Shown here one piece after another: positions 8,943 to 17,829 of a stretch of 64,000 bases of DNA. A program made the translations under genes and the position numbers. The DNA comes from Nitrospirales bacterium. GTDB taxonomy: Bacteria > Nitrospirota > Nitrospiria > Nitrospirales > UBA8639. The stretch is from NCBI GenBank assembly GCA_965223295.1, contig CBDCWC010000003.1:1856001-1920000 (forward strand), read 5' to 3'. The notes beneath the pieces are model-generated. The model was not told the DNA's origin, did no database searches, and saw only the letters and a program-made list of their open reading frames with translations. Each line of letters opens with the position of its first letter. The first letter of the stretch is position 1.

Positions 8943-9018
8943 GCCCATGTAGCTCAGTTGGTAGAGCACGTCCTTGGTAAGGACGAGGTCACGCGTTCGA
9001 TCCGCGTCGTGGGCTCCA
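8943..9018 (+). tRNA. tRNA-Thr(GGT)
   Basis: GCCCATGTAGCTCAG...CGTCCTT-GGT-AAGGACG...CCA. Confidence 0.95.
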
Positions 9019-9080
9019 TTTGAGTACTTCTGTAAGTGTATTGAGGTATAGATCTGTAATCCTGACTAAGGAGAGATAGG

Positions 9081-10286
9081 ATGGCGAAGGCGAAATTTGA
9101 GCGGAAGAAGCCGCATTTAAATGTGGGGACGATTGGGCATGTGGATCATGGCAAGACGACGCTCACCTCGGCGTTAACCAAAGTCATGGGGGATTTAGGG
9201 AAAGCCTCGTATGTGCCCTATGACGACGTGGCCAAGGCGAGCGAGAGTCAAGGGCGGCGGGATCCCACCAAAATCCTCACGATTGCCATCTCGCATGTGG
9301 AGTATGAAACCGACAACCGGCATTACGCGCATGTGGACTGTCCGGGGCATGCGGACTATGTCAAAAACATGATCACGGGGGCGGCGCAAATGGACGGGGC
9401 CATCTTGGTGGTCAGTGCGGCGGATGGGCCGATGCCGCAAACGCGGGAGCATATCCTCTTAGCGCGGCAAGTGGGGGTACCCTACATCGTCGTCTTCTTG
9501 AACAAAGCGGATAAGGTGGAAGACAAAGAATTGCTGGAGTTAGTGGAATTAGAAGTGCGGGAATTGCTCACCAAGTATGGCTTTCCCGGCGATGATGTGC
9601 CGGTGGTCATCGGATCAGCCATCAAAGCCATCGAAGGCGACAGCAGCGACATTGGGATCGCCTCGATCACGAAGTTATTAGAGGCGGTGGATACGTACAT
9701 TCCCACGCCCGAACGAGCCATCGACAAGGCCTTTCTCATGCCAATAGAAGATGTATTTACCATCAGTGGCCGGGGGACGGTGGTCACAGGCCGAGTGGAG
9801 CGGGGCAAGGTCAAGGTGGGGGATGAAATTGAGATTGTGGGGTTACGGGCCACGCAGGCGACCATTGTCACAGGGGTGGAAATGTTCCGGAAGGTGTTAG
9901 ATGATGGGCAAGCGGGCGATAACATTGGGGCCTTGTTGCGGGGTACGAAGAAAGAGGACGTGGAGCGGGGGATGGTGTTGGCCAAGCCGAAGTCGATCAC
10001 GCCGCATACGAAGTTCAAGGCGGAAGTGTATGTGTTGACGAAAGAAGAAGGGGGCCGGCATACGCCGTTTTTCAATGGGTATCGCCCGCAGTTTTACTTC
10101 CGGACGACGGATGTGACGGGGGTGGTGCAGTTGAATGAAGGGGTGGAGATGGTGATGCCGGGGGATAACGTGTCGTTTGCGGGGGAGTTGATTGCGCCGA
10201 TTGCGATGGAGCAGGGGGTGCGGTTTGCCGTGCGCGAAGGGGGCCGAACCGTGGGGGCCGGGGTTGTCACCGAAATTGTTGAGTAA
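9081..10286 (+). CDS. tuf: Elongation factor Tu (intact copy)
   Basis: [20 protein letters not shown], full C-terminus. Confidence 0.98.
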
Positions 10287-10307
10287 GAATGTTATAGAGG
10301 TGTAGCT

Positions 10308-10457
10308 ATGCGAGTGATTATTTCTCTGGCTTGTGGAGATTGCAAGCGACGAAATTATTCTACAATGAAAAACAAGAAGAACGATCCTGATCGTCTGGAA
10401 ATGAAAAAGTTTTGCCGGCATTGCCGAAAACATGTCCCCCATAAAGAGGTGAAGTGA
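10308..10457 (+). CDS. rpmG: 50S ribosomal protein L33 (Zn-ribbon form)
   Basis: Hand translation [17 protein letters not shown]...[17 protein letters not shown]; below ORF-track cutoff. Confidence 0.95.
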
Positions 10458-10497
10458 TTTGTTTGTGGGCAGAAACCTTTTGGGTTTGAGCCTGTGA

Positions 10498-10573
10498 AGG
10501 GGCATAGTGTCAACGGTTAGCACGTCGGTCTCCAAAACCGAAAGTCCGGGTTCGAATCCTGGTGCCCCTGCCA
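10498..10573 (+). tRNA. tRNA-Trp(CCA)
   Basis: AGGGGCATAG...TCGGTCT-CCA-AAACCGA...GGTTCGAATCC...CCA; rpmG-trnW-secE synteny. Confidence 0.93.
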
Positions 10574-10650
10574 TAGACGTTTATGAGGGCTAATTGATTG
10601 GGGGCCGATCAAGAGCATTGTTGGAAATAATCTGTTAGCAAGGTTCAAGC

Positions 10651-10845
10651 ATGTTTAAAAAAGCCTGGTCTACTATTACGGAATTTTTGTCTGATGTTCG
10701 CAGTGAACTGAAGAAGATTTCCTATCCCACAAAATCCGAAACAATTGGTTCGACAACGGTCGTATTGCTGTTTTGTATGATCATGTCGATGTATTTATCG
10801 GTTGTTGACTCATTTCTCGTGTGGTTAATCAGCAAGATTGTCTAA
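10651..10845 (+). CDS. secE: Preprotein translocase SecE
   Basis: ELKKISYP motif plus TM; synteny. Confidence 0.93.
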   Translation: MFKKAWSTITEFLSDVRSELKKISYPTKSETIGSTTVVLLFCMIMSMYLSVVDSFLVWLISKIV

Positions 10846-10847
10846 CG

Positions 10848-11037
10848 GGTGGTGTTGAATAATGAAGACATCAAAGGCCATATTTCGCCAGGAAGCTCTT
10901 GGCGATCATCAGCGTCGGGTTGGTTTAAAAAGTCCGTCCAGCAAGGCCGCAGCCATTGTTGCGCGCGGAGCGTACTGGCAGTACGTGAGCACGGGAAAAT
11001 GGTGAGAACGCCGCTGGCGGATTTTTTCAACAGACTC
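10848..11037 (+). mobile_element. MITE family 1, copy B
   Basis: GGTGGTGTTGAATAA...TTTTTTCAACAGACTC; perfect 5-bp flanking repeat TAACG. Confidence 0.85.
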
Positions 11038-11057
11038 TAACGGAAAGAAAGGGATTC

Positions 11058-11594
11058 ATGGCGAGCCATTGGTATGTCATCCACACCTATGCCGGATTTG
11101 AGGGGAGAGTGCGAACGGGTATAGTTGAACGCGCCAATCAGTTGGGATTGGGAGAAATGGTTGGGCAGGTACTTGTTCCCACTGAGGATGTTGTGGAATT
11201 TAAGGAAGGAAAACGGCGGGCGTCCAAAAGAAAGTTTTTCCCAGGCTATGTCCTGCTTGAAGCAAATGGGCCGATTAGTGACGAGGTCGTCATGATGATA
11301 AAAGAGACGCCAAAGGTAACAGGATTTGTAGGAGGGGGAACTCGGCCAATTCCATTGGATCCAGAAGAAGTGTCAACTCTTCTGAGTCAACTCGAATCTG
11401 GAGTTTCGGCTCCAAGAGAGCTGGCAAGTTTTGCAAAGGGTGACAATGTCAGAATAGTTGATGGTCCATTTTTGGGCTTTAATGGAATGGTCGATGAAGT
11501 CGATCAAGACCATGGAAGAGTGAAGGCGTTGGTTAGTATTTTTGGGCGGTCAACTCCGGTGGAGTTGGCGTTTTCCCAAGTTGAGCGAGGATAG
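11058..11594 (+). CDS. nusG: Transcription factor NusG
   Basis: WYVIHTYAGFE, FFPGYV, KOW GPFLGFNG, IFGRSTPVEL. Confidence 0.97.
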   Translation: MASHWYVIHTYAGFEGRVRTGIVERANQLGLGEMVGQVLVPTEDVVEFKEGKRRASKRKFFPGYVLLEANGPISDEVVMMIKETPKVTGFVGGGTRPIPLDPEEVSTLLSQLESGVSAPRELASFAKGDNVRIVDGPFLGFNGMVDEVDQDHGRVKALVSIFGRSTPVELAFSQVERG

Positions 11595-11670
11595 AGTGAT
11601 AGGCTCTATGCTTCTTTGTTGTTGTAATGGAGCGTGATGAGAGCGTTAGCAATAAAAGGTAGGTGAATTT

Positions 11671-12096
11671 ATGGCCAAAGAAGTAACCAGTCAAATTAAA
11701 TTACAAATTCCGGCTGGAAAAGCCAATCCTGCTCCTCCTGTTGGCCCTTCCTTGGGGCAGCATGGCGTGAATATTATGGAATTTTGTAAGCAATTTAACG
11801 CGAAGACGCAGAAGCAGGAAGGCAGCATTATTCCTGTTGTGATTTCGGTATATAAAGATAGAAGTTTTAGTTTTATTATGAAAACGCCGCCAGCGTCAGA
11901 CCTGTTGAAAAAGGCTGCTGGTGTGATTAAAGGTTCTGGTATCCCACATAAAAGCAAGGTCGGGAAAATTACGCAGGCGCAATTAGAAGAGATTGCGAAA
12001 ATAAAGGCAGAAGATTTGAACGCCAGCGATATTCCTGCCGCCATGCAAGTGATTGCTGGGACTGCGCGGAGTATGGGTATCACGGTAGAAGGATAA
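11671..12096 (+). CDS. rplK: 50S ribosomal protein L11
   Basis: [23 protein letters not shown]. Confidence 0.97.
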
Positions 12097-12131
12097 ATCT
12101 TTCCAGGATTTTTAAATAGAGGGTATGAATT

Positions 12132-12824
12132 GTGGGGAAAAAATTTAAAGAAGCCTTAAAAAAGGTGTCAAAGTCAGAATATTCGTTGGAAGAAGCCAGT
12201 GCATTAGTCAAGGAGTCTGCTTTTGCCAAGTTTGATGAATCTGTTGAAATGGCCTTGTCGCTTGGAGTCGACCCAAAGCGAGCAGATCAAATGGTACGTG
12301 GGACAACGGTCTTGCCTCATGGCACTGGGAAAAAGACTCGGATTTTGGTGATTGCCAAAGGTGAAAAGGAGCAGGAAGCTAGGGAGGCTGGTGCTGATTT
12401 TGCCGGGAATGAGGATCTTCTGCAGAAAATTCAGGATGGGTGGTTGGATTTTGATTCAATGATTGCCACTCCTGACATGATGGGTTCCGTGGGAAAGTTG
12501 GGAAAGGTTTTGGGGCCACGAGGGTTGATGCCAAATCCCAAAACGGGAACGGTGACATTTGAGGTAGGCAAAGCCATTCAGGAGATTCGGAAAGGCCGTG
12601 TGGAATATAAAGTTGATAAGGCTGGAAATGTGCATGTGCCAGTCGGAAAAGTCTCGTTTCAGGCTCAGCAAATCACCGACAATGTCAAGACGGTGTTTGA
12701 TTCCATCATGAAGGCCAAGCCTTCTTCCAGTAAAGGGAAGTATGTCAAGAGTGCGACGTTGTCGAGCACGATGGGGCCAGGGATTCGTCTGGATAGTGTG
12801 GCTCTTGCCAAGCAAGTTGGGTGA
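12132..12824 (+). CDS. rplA: 50S ribosomal protein L1
   Basis: [28 protein letters not shown]. Confidence 0.97.
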
Positions 12825-12853
12825 AATTTTAATCTTCGCAGGTGGGTTGGAGT

Positions 12854-13792
12854 ATGAAAAAATCTGATAAAGCAGAAGTTGTGTCAACCTTGCACGAACG
12901 GTTTGCTCGGGCGCGAATTGCTATTGTGACGGAATGTGCGGGAATGCCCGTCAATCAGGTCAATGATTTGCGAAAAAAGCTTCGTCAGGCTCAGGCGCAT
13001 TTGCATGTCGTTAAAAATACGTTAGCAGTTCGAGCCATCAGTGAGACTCCGCTGGTTCCGTTGCAACCCTTGCTTAAAGGGCAGTCCGTCATGGTCATTG
13101 GCTATGATGATCCGGTGTTGCCGACGAAAGTCGTACGCGATTTTATTAAAGCAGAAAAATGTGAAAAGAATTTGCAAATTAAGGGAGCAGTTCTAGATGG
13201 TGACGAGTTGGATCCTGCTCGGTTGTCCTCGGTGGCGGATTTGCCGTCAAAATCAGAATTGCTTGCCATGTTATTGTCAGCCTTTCAGGGCCCTATTCGA
13301 GGATTTGTTGTAGGGCTCAATCAGATAGTTAGAGGGTTTGTTGCAGTACTTGCGGCGATTCAGGAAAACAAAAGTAAGAAAGGAGAAGGAGAAATGGCTA
13401 CGAAGGAAGCAAAGCTGTCAAAAGAGGATATTATTAACGGGGTATCCAACTTGAGTGTGTTGGAGCTTTCAGAATTGGTGAAAGAATTAGAAGAGAAGTT
13501 TGGAGTAACGGCGGCAGCTCCTGTGGGAGTGGCTGTGGCGGCTTCGGGGGCTGCGGCAGCGCCTGCTGGAGAGGAAAAGACAGAGTTTGATGTAGTTTTG
13601 ACAGGAGCCCCGGCAGACAAAAAGATTCAGGCTATTAAGGTTGTCCGTGAAATTACGGGATTAGGTTTAAAAGAGGCTAAAGATTTGGTGGAAGGCGTGC
13701 CCAAGCCTGTGAAAGAAGGAGCGTCAAAGGAAGAGGCTGAGGCAATTCAGAAGAAGCTGCAGGAGGTTGGAGCGACGGTGGAAGTAAAATAG
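12854..13792 (+). CDS. rplJ: L10 domain (12854-13393) read in frame into L7/L12: apparent L10-L12 fusion ORF
   Basis: LRKKLR...VVKNTL...LPSKSELL (L10); no stop before the L12 part. Confidence 0.85.
13394..13792 (+). CDS. rplL: 50S ribosomal protein L7/L12 from internal start
   Basis: SD-like AGGAGAAGGAG directly before ATG 13394; [29 protein letters not shown]. Confidence 0.88.
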
Positions 13793-13863
13793 GTTTGCTG
13801 CGCCAATGAATTGCTTGGAGCCAGTCGGGCTCGGCTAGCTGTTAATCCATCAAGGAGATCTGA

Positions 13864-16800
13864 ATGCCACAATCAGCCTTTGAGGGCAGTGTACAACGAC
13901 ATAGTTTTTCGAAGATTCGCACCCATATTGTGATTCCTGATTTAGTTGAAGTTCAGCGTCGTTCCTATGAGGAGTTCTTGCAGGCGGAAACGCTACCTGA
14001 CCGACGTGCTGAGAAGGGGTTGCATGCTGCCTTTAAAAGTGTGTTCCCCATCATGGATTACAACAATTCAGCCATTTTGGAGTTTTCGAGTTATTCGTTG
14101 GGAACTCCAAAATACGATATTCGGGAATGTATTGAACAGGGAATGACTTTTGCGGCTCCCTTAAAGCTCCGTGTACGGTTGGTGGTCTTCGATCAGCAGG
14201 ATAAAGCGGTGAAAAACCGGGTGTTGGATGTTCGAGAGCAAGAGGTGTATGTCGGTGAGCTGCCGCTCATGACTGATCGGGGTACTTTTATCGTGAATGG
14301 GACGGAGCGCGTGGCTGTGAGCCAATTGCACCGGTCTCCAGGTCCATCATTTGGTCATGATAAGGGACGAACGCATTCCAGTGGCAAGGTGTTATTTTCT
14401 GGAAGGATTATTCCGTATCGTGGCTCTTGGTTAGATTTTGAATATGATGCCCGCGATATTCTATATGTCCGTATTGATCGCCGCCGAAAAATGCCCGCTA
14501 CGATTTTGCTCAAAGGTTTTGGTTTTAGTACAGATGATCTTTTGAAGATGTATTACCCTGTGGAGGAAGTTCGGGTCAGTAAGGGGATGTTGCTTCGCAA
14601 GTTGGATCCGGCGATTCATACTGGGTTGCGTGCCCCAACCGATTTAGTGGATAAAAGTTCAGGGGATGTATTGGCTAAAGAAGGTATGAAGTTAAATAAA
14701 ACCCTCATGGCTCGTGTGCGATCCGGAGGGATAAAGGAAATTTCTATTAAACCGGAAGATCTCGTGGGGAGGGCTGTCTTAACCGAACTCGTGGATTCGG
14801 AAAGCCAGGAAGTGATCTTGGAGAAGAATCAGCGTTTGACAGCCCCAGTCTTAGAGCAGATCCTGGAAGGTCGCGTAGAGTCTTTTAAAGTCATTTATTT
14901 GGATAGTCCAACTACCAGCCCTGTTATTTTGGATACCTTGGAGGCAGAACGCACCAATTCTAAAGAAGAAGCGTGGGTGGAAATTTATAAGCGGCTTCGT
15001 CCCGGAGAAATGCCCTCAATCGAATCAGCTAAGCTGTTATTTGAGAATCTTTTCCTTAATCCCAAGCGCTATGACCTGTCTCCCGTTGGTCGCTTGAAAA
15101 TGAATAAGCGATTTAACTTAGACTTGTCGTTAGAGCAACGAACATTGTCGGCTCAAGATATTGTTGAAGTGGTGCGGTGTTTGGTCGATCTCAAGGCTGG
15201 TAAAGGTGAAGTAGATGACATCGATCATTTAGGGAATCGGCGCGTGCGCTCTGTGGGGGAGCTATTGGAAAATCAAATTCGAATCGGTTTGGCAAGAATG
15301 GAGCGTAGCATTAAAGAGCGCATGAATCTTTTAGATATGGACACAGTGCTGCCGCATGACCTTATTAATGCTAAGCCTATAGTGGCAGCCATTAAGGAAT
15401 TTTTTGCAGGCAGTCAATTGTCTCAATTTATGGACCAAACGAATCCTTTGGCAGAAATTACGCATAAGCGGCGTCTATCTGCCTTGGGTCCTGGAGGTCT
15501 GACTCGAGAGCGAGCCGGTTTCGAGGTTCGTGATGTTCATCCGTCGCACTATAGCCGCATATGCCCGATTGAAACGCCAGAAGGCCCGAATATTGGGTTG
15601 ATCACATCTCTGGCGACCTATGCTCGGATTAACGAATTTGGCTTTATTGAGGCACCTTTTAGAAAAGTGCGAAAAGGTCGTGTGTCTGATGATGTGGAAT
15701 TTCTCTCGCCGATAGATGGTGATCAGGTTGTCATTGCCCAGGCCAATACTGCAATGAGTAAGGACGGGGCTCTTACCTCTGAGACGATTACCGCGCGGGA
15801 AGCGGGGGAGTTTGTCACGACCACGCCTGATACCGTCGATTATCTTGATGTTTCTCCAAAACAGGTTGTGAGTGTGGCGACAGCGCTCATTCCATTTTTG
15901 GAGCATGATGATGCCAATCGCGCGCTCATGGGTTCCAATATGCAGCGGCAAGCCGTTCCAACGGTTAAAAGTGAATCGCCTTTGGTTGGGACCGGAATGG
16001 AAGCCGTGGTGGCCAGGGATTCAGGGTATTTGGCTATTGCCCAGCGAGATGGAATTGTCGAGTCCGTGGATGCTCGACGAATTGTGGTTCGAGCTGGCAG
16101 TAAAGAAAAAGACGTGCAGAAAAAGAGTTCCCGAATTCTCGACACCTATGATTTAGTGAAATTTCAACGTACCAATCAAAATACCTGTATTATTCAGACG
16201 CCTATCGTACGAGTAGGGCAACCGGTGAAGAAGGGGCAAGTGTTGGCGGATGGGCCGTCGATGGATCGTGGAGAATTGGCTTTGGGTAAAAATGTTCTGG
16301 TCGCCTTTATGCCTTGGGGCGGCTACAACTATGAGGACGCCATACTATTGAGTGAAAAATTAGTGCGAGAAGATACCTTCACGTCTATTCATATTGAAGA
16401 ATTTGAAGTTGAAGCGCGAGATACCAAGTTAGGGAAAGAGGAGATTACAAGAGATATTCCAAACTTGGGAGAAGAGGCTCTTCGCAATTTGGATGAAAGT
16501 GGAATTGTTCGCATTGGAGCGGAAGTGAAGCCTGGAGATATTTTGGTTGGCAAGGTCACGCCTAAGGGGGAGACTCAGTTGACCCCTGAAGAAAAGCTTC
16601 TGCGAGCCATTTTTGGAGAGAAAGCGGGAGATGTGAAGGATACGTCTTTGCAAGTTCCTCCGGGCATCGAGGGAATTGTGGTTGATGTTAAAATATTTTC
16701 CCGTAAAGGGGTCGATAAAGATGAGCGATCTCGTACGATCGAAACCGATGATCGTGTGAAGGTGGAGCGTGACTATCAAGAGGAATTGCGGATTATCGAA

Positions 16801-17829
16801 GAAGAGCGGAATCGTAAGATTCGCAAGTTATTGTTAGGACAGTTTGTTGGGCGGGATTTGATGGACCCTGATAGCGGTGAAGTCATTCTGAAGAAAAAAG
16901 GCCGTATTACCGCGGATGTACTCCGGAAGCTCACAGATGATGATGCGAGGCGGGTCATTTTAGCTGATGCCGAGGAGCAGAAAAAACTTGATGAAATCGA
17001 ACGAGAAGCCAAAGATCAAATTGAAATTCTGCAAACGGAGTATGACGAGAAGGTGGGGCGGCTGCGTCGAGGGGACGAGTTGCCGCCAGGAGTGATCAAG
17101 CTGGTCAAAGTGTATTTAGCGATTAAGCGGAAAATTGCGGTTGGGGACAAAATGGCCGGCCGACATGGGAATAAAGGTGTGGTGTCTCGGATCATGCCGG
17201 AAGAAGATATGCCGCATCTTCCGGACGGAACTCCTGTCGAAATTGTCTTGAACCCGTTGGGCGTACCTTCCAGGATGAATGTTGGGCAAATTTTGGAGAC
17301 TCATCTGGGGTGGGCCTCTCATGCTTTGGGTATTAAGGTCGAAACTCCTGTTTTTGATGGAGCATCGGAAAAAGAGATCAAGGACCTCTTAGCGAAGGCG
17401 AATTTACCTGAGTCTGGTCAATCTATCGTGTATGATGGTAGGACGGGCGAGCCCTTTAAGAGTCCCGTCACGGTTGGATACATGTATATGCTGAAGCTGC
17501 ATCATTTGGTGGATGATAAAATTCATGCGCGGTCCATTGGGCCTTATTCTTTGGTCACGCAGCAGCCCTTGGGTGGGAAAGCGCAATTCGGTGGTCAACG
17601 CTTGGGAGAAATGGAGGTCTGGGCGTTACAAGCCTATGGGGCGGCTTCCACGCTGCAGGAATTTCTCACTGTCAAATCTGATGATGTCCCGGGGCGTTCC
17701 CGTATGTATGAGGCCATTGTGAAAGGGGAAAATTTCCTCGAGCCTGGCTTGCCTGAGTCCTTTAATGTGTTAGTAAAAGAGTTGCAGAGTTTAGGGTTGG
17801 ATGTGGAGCTGATTAAATCTGCGGAATAG
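13864..17829 (+). CDS. rpoB: RNA polymerase beta
   Basis: [25 protein letters not shown] and other conserved blocks. Confidence 0.99.

Follow-up and report, generated by a model that had tools for sequence, protein, structure and literature searches.

The uL10-bL12 reading frame

The window examined here is a 64,000-nt stretch of a Nitrospirales bacterium genome (assembly GCA_965223295.1, contig CBDCWC010000003.1, positions 1,856,001 to 1,920,000 of the forward strand), and the subject of this work is its rplJ-rplL locus, which encodes the ribosomal stalk proteins uL10 (L10) and bL12 (L12, L7/L12). At this locus both genes lie in a single open reading frame (ORF). Reading of the sequence showed that the first in-frame stop after the ATG at 12854 is the TAG at 13790-13792. 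The ORF listing gives 12842 to 13792, a protein of 316 aa from a GTG; the ATG equivalent to 12854 is the start in all 55 relatives analysed, and a product of 312 aa was therefore taken. The codons across the junction are CAG GAA AAC AAA AGT AAG AAA GGA GAA GGA GAA ATG GCT, with the ATG at 13394-13396. An initial annotation of this DNA had described one frame, a string resembling a Shine-Dalgarno sequence (SD), an ATG at 13394 and a KGEGE linker, and each of these statements was found to be correct. The parts of the frame are as follows; AlphaFold2 is abbreviated AF2, and its per-residue confidence, the predicted local distance difference test, pLDDT.

12854 to 13792, + strand: single rplJ-rplL ORF, 312 codons and a TAG stop; predicted product of 33,230 Da
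12854 to 13249, + strand: globular rRNA-binding part of uL10, aa 1-132 (PF00466 over aa 1-98; AF2 pLDDT about 90)
13250 to 13381, + strand: predicted C-terminal helix alpha8 of uL10, aa 133-176, docking site of bL12 dimers (AF2; alignment with 1zav_A)
13379 to 13385, + strand: internal SD, AAAGGAG, in frame as K176-G177-E178, 8 nt 5′ of the internal ATG
13382 to 13393, + strand: join peptide G177-E178-G179-E180, the former intergenic spacer in translation (outgroup junctions; AF2 pLDDT below 50 for aa 177-188)
13394 to 13396, + strand: internal in-frame ATG, Met181, putative start of free bL12 (132 aa, 13,649 Da)
13394 to 13420, + strand: N-terminal extension of bL12, MATKEAKLS (no AF2 helix before aa 190)
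13421 to 13501, + strand: N-terminal dimerisation and L10-binding domain of bL12, aa 190-216 (PF16320; AF2 helices)
13502 to 13585, + strand: Ala/Gly/Pro-rich hinge of bL12, aa 217-244 (AF2 pLDDT below 50 for aa 217-255)
13586 to 13789, + strand: C-terminal factor-binding domain of bL12, aa 245-312 (PF00542)

The stop-free junction in independent data and across the order

Analysis of independent sequence data showed that the junction is not a product of sequencing or assembly error. The initial annotation had cautioned that a base missing from an A run might conceal a stop. The arithmetic of this caveat holds, as a TAA occurs in the -1 frame at 13375-13377 and insertion of a single base before 13375 would place it in frame. 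The error itself, however, was refuted. Contigs from four public runs, belonging to two studies, span positions 13200-13560 and differ from the window by substitutions only, with no insertions or deletions; runs X1 and X2 may be the source sample, and runs X3 and X4 represent a slightly different strain with 8 substitutions. The junction is likewise open in 105 genomes with differing junction sequences, as set out below. The probability of an error is negligible, and the stop-free L10-L12 frame was confirmed as genuine.

The distribution of the fused frame was examined in two samples. Whole-genome searches located the locus in 39 of 41 relatives, and the match crosses the junction without a stop in every one of the 39 (34 at full length, five ended by contig edges). 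The second sample comprised 301 genomes drawn from the phylum, 76 from the order of the window and 225 from outside it. Within the order, 75 of the 76 were matched and all 75 were stop-free at the junction, 73 at full length and two ended by contig edges. When the nine genomes common to both samples were counted once, the pooled set amounted to 105 distinct genomes from four families, all stop-free, the lowest protein identity being 52%. The three genomes of the order that gave no match (66%, 59% and 99% complete) contain no L12 C-terminal domain anywhere in the assembly, which indicates that the locus was not assembled.

Outside the order, 195 of the 225 genomes were matched. Among the matches listed, all 48 that span the junction hold between one and four stops; in the other matched genomes L10 and L12 were matched separately, and the best E-values were those expected of half-length matches. 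No stop-free junction was seen elsewhere in the phylum among these 195 matched genomes of 225. The fusion thus appears to be fixed across the whole order and specific to it within the phylum. The NCBI names of near-identical proteins assign the order to Nitrospirales. The second family of the order includes NCBI records named Nitrospira sp. that carry the same fused ORF, which bears out a statement, offered in the initial annotation as unverified, that Nitrospira share the fusion.

Origin of the fusion and upkeep of the open frame

Junctions of related, unfused loci were compared to those of the order. All 16 outgroup loci fetched have a stop, a spacer and an ATG, the ATG lying in the rplJ frame in 13 and in another frame in three. 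Each of the 13 same-frame spacers carries an SD just 5′ of the ATG, as in CAA TAA AAG GAG GAA AAA GTT ATG or, where the spacer is very short, GGA GGT TCA TAA ATG. Since the outgroup has a stop followed by a short, SD-bearing in-frame spacer, the fusion can be explained as the loss of the stop from such a spacer. These comparisons indicate that the rplJ-rplL fusion arose once, at the base of the order, through loss of the rplJ stop codon, and that the linker KGEGE is the SD region in translation.

Retention of the stop is the rule in bacteria more widely. Two broad scans were made, with 80 loci fetched in each (160), and loci with rplJ and rplL in the same frame were taken as evaluable. The stop was kept in 71 of 72 and 75 of 76 evaluable loci, respectively. 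The two stop-free exceptions were a Nitrospirota metagenome-assembled genome (L005) and an unrelated metagenome contig (L203), which is described below. Because most same-frame bacterial loci keep the stop, fixation of a fusion throughout an order would seem to be more than chance.

The persistence of the open frame could be set against a neutral expectation. Linker codons (Lys, Glu, Gly as GGA, and Gln) are mostly one mutation away from a stop; a gene offers 5.8 such routes on average, and 1.8 of these precede the SD core. When all positions are counted, the tree of the 55 gene sequences is at least 8.4 substitutions per site long; at four-fold sites it is far longer, to the point of saturation. 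At equal rates, at least about five stop gains (8.4 × 1.8/3) would be expected upstream of the SD core under neutrality. A regained stop at the junction was found in none of the 105 genomes of the order. Under these assumptions, and short of a formal test, the open frame itself looks selected.

Signals for a proposed internal initiation at bL12

The 55 distinct full-length fused genes of the order were aligned to determine whether the start signals of the former rplL gene had been preserved, an SD core being defined as GGAG, GAGG or AGGA at positions -16 to -4. The internal ATG is present in 55/55 genes and is preceded by an SD core in 54/55, the sole exception having a run of five G. As a control, the other in-frame ATGs of the same genes were scored, and an SD core was found before 47 of 283. 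Conservation extends to synonymous positions. The Lys176 codon is AAA in 51/55 genes, and the Gly177 codon is GGA in 50/53 and GGG in 3/53, never GGC or GGT. Entropy at the third position of Gly177 is 0.31, whereas the 29 strict four-fold columns of this alignment have a median of 1.76, and their lowest value is 1.06. The residues flanking Met181, on the other hand, vary, with E at position 180 in 69% and A at position 182 in 40%. As the stretch is predicted to be disordered and its neighbouring residues are variable while the ATG is invariant and the GGA frozen, the constraint acts on an RNA signal and not on the peptide. The comparison points firmly to an rplL initiation region that now lies inside the frame and is still under selection.

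Further features are consistent with initiation at this site. The genome contains a 16S-type tail, GGATCACCTCCTT, with the anti-SD (CCUCC). The 60-nt region surrounding the internal ATG of the window is predicted to be essentially unstructured (-2.5 kcal/mol), whereas the rplJ start region is predicted to fold at -8.7 kcal/mol with its SD paired. Across the order, the median predicted folding energies are -5.1 kcal/mol for the internal site and -7.6 kcal/mol for the rplJ start, with the internal site the weaker in 39/55 loci. No second L12 gene was found in the genome, which is 100% complete and has one PF00542 locus only; any free bL12 must therefore derive from the fused frame. The locus thus has the conserved in-frame start, with an SD at functional spacing (AAAGGAG-N8-ATG), that characterizes an ORF with two products.

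These data bear on a simpler reading, in which the fusion protein alone is made and the internal ATG is a plain Met codon. This is the literal reading of the ORF, as in some database records of a single L10 or L7/L12 protein of 311-313 aa, and we found nothing that supports it specifically. It would leave each ribosome with one bL12, there being no other rplL in the genome, and with an alpha8 helix that is conserved yet empty; the ATG in 55/55 genes, the SD in 54/55 and the conservation at synonymous sites would also go unexplained. We consider it highly improbable.

The internal SD might instead act by recoding, such that a frameshift or drop-off near it ends uL10 and little or no fusion protein is made. 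Internal SDs pause ribosomes and stimulate frameshifting in prfB and dnaX, and the TAA at 13375-13377 offers a stop in the -1 frame of the window. This TAA, however, is limited to the window and to L002 and L031, the two relatives closest to it, and most of the genus has AAC AAA ACG CAG at the same position. An ATGA overlap occurs in many members of the genus, but not in the window or in the Nitrospira family. No slippery site or off-frame stop shared by the junction sequences compared was seen. Recoding was accordingly rejected as an improbable explanation, the -1 TAA being confined to three loci and the ATGA overlap to part of the genus.

A second in-frame ATG was observed 7 codons past the internal start in many loci of the same genus (L003-L020, L026, L027 and L032; ...ETK-M-SKED). 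In the window, the codon at this position is CTG (Leu188). In the species that have the second ATG, the short product could have two alternative N-termini.

Domain organization and the tether

All expected domains of both proteins were identified in the fused chain. Pfam Ribosomal_L10 (PF00466) matches aa 1-98 with 89.2 bits against a curated cut-off of 22.8, and Ribosomal_L12_N (PF16320; aa 190-237, 81.3 bits) and Ribosomal_L12 (PF00542; aa 245-312, 100.3 bits) are likewise above their curated cut-offs. Precomputed matches to RL10_C (PF27436) are recorded for the window protein and for most of its listed relatives. Residues 4-174 align with residues 6-179 of the 180-residue Thermotoga maritima L10 chain 1zav_A, whereas the alignment with L10 chains of the Escherichia coli type stops near residue 153 of the query. 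The bL12 part can be aligned with solved bL12 chains from one end to the other, with E-values down to 3.5e-35.

The AF2 model, built from a 45-row alignment, has a mean pLDDT of 70. One long helix occupies aa 133-176 (pLDDT about 88) and is followed by a low-confidence stretch at aa 177-189, of which aa 177-188 have pLDDT below 50 and are predicted to be disordered. The bL12 N-terminal helices are placed at aa 190-198 and 202-216, followed by a disordered hinge at aa 217-244 and then the C-terminal domain. In the alignment and the model, alpha8 is intact and of Thermotoga length. The model predicts that about 13 flexible residues (aa 177-189) tether its end to the first bL12 helix. The distance from the bL12 Met to the downstream residue aligned to L188 is 7-9 codons in the order and 1-3 codons in 12 readable outgroup loci, and the bL12 of the fused genes has 4-7 extra N-terminal residues (MATKEAK, MSATETK or MPATEGK, against MAITK, MSITK and similar in the outgroup). 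The tether would thus be partly new, since the bL12 N-terminus specific to the order is longer than that of the outgroup. Digestion with trypsin is predicted to yield the junction peptide GEGEMATK (aa 177-184) in this organism; the corresponding stretch in the Nitrospira family is ...K-GEGDM-PATEGK, and a junction peptide should be included in proteomic searches of Nitrospira.

A disordered join also invites the suggestion that the fused chain is processed like a polyprotein, being cut in the join to give canonical uL10 and bL12, with the internal start merely adding more bL12. The join does lie in a region predicted to be disordered, and hence accessible (aa 177-188, pLDDT below 50), and nothing in the sequence forbids cleavage. 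We know of no protease that cleaves such an L10-L12 join, however, and there is no conserved peptide motif beyond the residues dictated by the SD; the surroundings of Met181 vary, and the joins in other lineages are quite different. If the chain were cut, a regained stop would be neutral and so expected among the 105 genomes, but there is none. Processing is therefore an unlikely account of the locus.

Proposed products and assembly of the stalk

Taken together, the results favour two products from one frame, a 33.2-kDa L10-L12 protein and, through internal initiation, a free L12 of 13.6 kDa, to which we assign a probability of about 0.65. The same reading had been put forward in the initial annotation, and every comparative test run here supported it: the frame is stop-free throughout the order, the ATG and SD are kept, the SD region is conserved at synonymous sites, and there is a single L12 gene. 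Ribosomes that start at the ATG at 12854 and read through would produce a uL10 in which the flexible tether, about 13 residues long, connects alpha8 to a complete bL12. Those that start at AAAGGAG-N8-ATG (13394) would produce the free 13.6-kDa bL12, which would fill the remaining sites on alpha8.

Several considerations weigh against this reading. Both proteins are inferred and not observed. Ribosomes elongating from the rplJ start cross the internal start site and could hinder initiation there. The order-wide difference in predicted folding is modest and is reversed in 16/55 loci, and the genomes compared are kin and not independent samples. The neutral expectation for stop gains assumes equal probabilities for all base changes and no other harm from a regained stop. 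A tether of 13 residues may be too short for the attached copy to reach an alpha8 site, and the sequence alone would allow proteolytic separation after translation.

The composition of the assembled stalk is more speculative. The alpha8 helix of Thermotoga presumably carries three bL12 dimers, and that of E. coli two. Because alpha8 in the window has the Thermotoga length, a complex of [uL10-bL12] with five free bL12 might be expected, in which the tethered copy would pair with one free copy at the distal alpha8 site. A stoichiometry of [uL10-bL12](bL12)5 would require about five times as many internal starts as upstream starts. As a speculative benefit, nascent uL10 would bring its own first bL12, which would guarantee a minimum stoichiometry and possibly stabilize uL10.

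The tethered bL12 might, alternatively, be an extra, seventh copy, six free bL12 filling alpha8 and the attached one remaining unpaired or pairing with a further free copy, in a manner similar to archaeal and eukaryotic P0. The architecture is formally P0-like, a uL10 homologue with its own C-terminal factor-recruiting element. The tether is short, at about 13 residues, and docking in cis is conjectural. Prediction of a complex between aa 148-240 (distal alpha8, tether and L12 N-terminal domain) and a chain of three free L12 N-terminal domains gave a score of 0.14, against a mark of 0.32, which speaks neither for nor against such docking. The bL12 N-terminal domain, however, forms a stable dimer when docked on alpha8. 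Of the free sites, that on distal alpha8 would be the nearest, directly beside the tether, so local concentration favours docking in cis, and the lengthening of the bL12 N-terminus by 4-7 residues in the order fits a need to reach this site. A seventh copy is therefore doubtful, and docking of the tethered copy at the distal alpha8 site is preferred.

Fused frames in other phyla and in databases

To place the fusion in a wider context, 1.84 billion cluster representatives were searched with HMMER, without a profile, and the best 150 matches were examined. Among these, 22 proteins with lengths of 297-332 aa can be aligned to the whole query in one stretch, with 34-58% identity. One of the 22 is from Nitrospirales. 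Named phyla or classes among the others are Dehalococcoidia/Chloroflexota (a cluster of 4), Armatimonadota (a cluster of 3), Bipolaricaulia and Fervidibacterota (a cluster of 7, whose contigs reach 94,962 nt). Two clusters, of 16 members and of 2 members (the latter on 12 contigs), are unnamed, and many others are singletons. As read by eye, a Met occurs at the junction in 17 of the 21 sequences from outside Nitrospirales, usually after G-G or E-G, the in-frame translation of GGAGG. Similar fused frames thus seem to occur sporadically in other phyla; these cases are predicted ORFs, and the singletons could be errors.

At the DNA level, a non-Nitrospirales fusion was confirmed only in the unrelated metagenome contig mentioned above (L203:601-1518). 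Its fused rplJ-rplL has the junction AAA AAA GGA GGG TCA TCA ATG, and its halves are 34% and 60% identical to those of the query. The sequence suggests an independent fusion of the same design, although a single contig may be in error. A search for the DNA of a Fervidibacterota-like fused protein (P0151) gave no match above 40% identity in two scans, which were swamped by general L12 peptide patterns and supplied the 160 loci of the broad bacterial sample above.

The fused ORF is already present in public databases under inconsistent names. The ESM Atlas has a 137-member cluster automatically named 'Multifunctional fusion protein', in which Nitrospirota is the commonest phylum, and a 72-member L10+L12 cluster in which Bacillota is the commonest. 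NCBI names for fused proteins (P0075, P0091, P0108, P0272, P0273, P0353, P0384 and P0396) vary between '50S ribosomal protein L10', '50S ribosomal protein L7/L12' and 'hypothetical protein', and some NCBI records annotate just a 133-aa L12 from the internal ATG. The JGI labels, made by pipeline, are likewise inconsistent. This matters beyond nomenclature, as marker-gene sets that use rplJ and rplL separately may mishandle Nitrospirales. A search of full-text literature, with subscription papers and supplements outside its scope, found no paper describing a natural uL10-bL12 fusion in Nitrospira or elsewhere. A 2013 survey reportedly treated L10 lengths and stalk stoichiometry. Interpretation of the ORF as a fusion would thus appear to be absent from the searchable literature.

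A different type of protein was also noted in the database search. Six entries (P0122, P0128, P0132, P0153, P0133 and P0140), of 322-1056 aa, contain 4-7 tandem bL12 C-terminal domains and have no L12 N-terminal domain. One of them, P0132, also has leucine-rich-repeat-variant domains.

Comparison with known systems

Of the protein elements of the bacterial ribosome, only the L7/L12 stalk is present in multiple copies. The canonical stalk, uL10(bL12)4 or uL10(bL12)6 (T. maritima, PDB 1ZAV/1ZAW/1ZAX), has the same proteins, domain order and operon order as the locus described here. It differs in having a stop between rplJ and rplL; in the window there is none, and the frame encodes one bL12 covalently joined to uL10. 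The frame also encloses the rplL start signals, and the bL12 has 4-7 extra N-terminal residues.

Archaeal and eukaryotic P0 offers a parallel in one respect. P0 carries its own GTPase-recruiting tail besides docking the separate stalk proteins P1/P2, and is likewise a uL10 homologue with a C-terminal factor-recruiting element of its own, a role that the complete bL12 after alpha8 would take here. The appended elements are not alike, however. P0 has a short acidic tail shared with P1/P2, whereas the fused chain has a whole bL12, with dimerisation domain, hinge and globular C-terminal domain. The Pfam scan assigned this element to PF16320 and PF00542 and to no other family, giving no homology to the P1/P2 tail, which we take to belong to a family other than bL12. 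By analogy, the fusion is best regarded as a convergent counterpart of P0 and not as a member of its family.

The mode of expression proposed here also has precedents. In-frame internal initiation gives two proteins from E. coli infB (the IF2 isoforms), clpB and cheA, where an SD and start codon likewise lie within an open frame and the shorter product corresponds to the C-terminal portion of the longer. The shorter product of those genes is a truncated protein; here, it would be a complete ribosomal protein that evolved separately, and the longer product would join two subunits of one complex. Natural fusion of adjacent subunit genes is known from rpoB-rpoC of Helicobacter, in which a stop was likewise lost between neighbours whose products adjoin in the complex, and the fusion became fixed in a clade. 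The rpoBC subunits are required at 1:1, so no internal start is needed there; at 1:4-6, as here, the internal start must be kept.

On balance, and with slightly better than even odds, we propose that the order, including Nitrospira, builds its stalk on a covalent uL10-bL12 chain and obtains the other bL12 copies from an internal start of the same frame, that this arrangement is a convergent bacterial counterpart of P0 apparently kept by selection, and that similar fusions arose independently in Chloroflexota, Armatimonadota, Bipolaricaulota and Fervidibacterota. What would be new is the combination of known proteins with known mechanisms, gene fusion and in-frame internal initiation, which would change how a universal element of the ribosome is covalently built throughout a major clade that includes Nitrospira, a globally important genus of nitrifiers. 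How many bL12 copies are needed, whether they exchange and whether their positions are equivalent are old questions. If the proposal is true, a natural, clade-wide stalk with one copy unable to leave uL10 would provide a ready-made test case, and the locus would be a clean example of 1:6 stoichiometry encoded in a single frame.

The rplA-rplJ spacer and neighbouring genes

The fused frame lies in an operon of the order rplK-rplA-rplJ-rplL-rpoB-rpoC, as seen from the ORFs of the window. Its immediate surroundings are as follows.

12132 to 12824, + strand: rplA (uL1), upstream ORF in the same operon, used as the L1 query for the spacer comparison
12825 to 12853, + strand: rplA-rplJ spacer of 29 nt with the rplJ ribosome-binding region, predicted to be partly base-paired
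13864 to 17829, + strand: rpoB, downstream ORF

With the end of rplA at 12824, the gap of 29 nt given in the initial annotation was confirmed. It had been said there to leave no room for the usual L10 leader. This is consistent with the absence of a match to any Rfam leader 5′ of rplJ at E-values up to 1 in positions 9000-14500 of the window, where only a tRNA and one chance-level match were found; the structured leader of autoregulated rplJL operons (Rfam L10_leader) was thus not detected. The short spacer is not distinctive, however. Spacers of 36 nt or less occur in 21 of 54 bacterial loci, and in 16 outgroup and four ingroup loci no Rfam leader was found at E-values up to 0.1 either, so the model may not cover the phylum. 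The spacer measures 12-133 nt in the order (median 29, 57 loci) and 119-191 nt in the seven outgroup loci of the same phylum with enough flanking sequence. A short spacer therefore appears to co-occur with the fusion; this is a single evolutionary contrast, and no causal link is claimed.

Further upstream, a tRNA gene is located at 10498-10570, between tuf and secE (Rfam, 60.9 bits), which is an ordinary arrangement.

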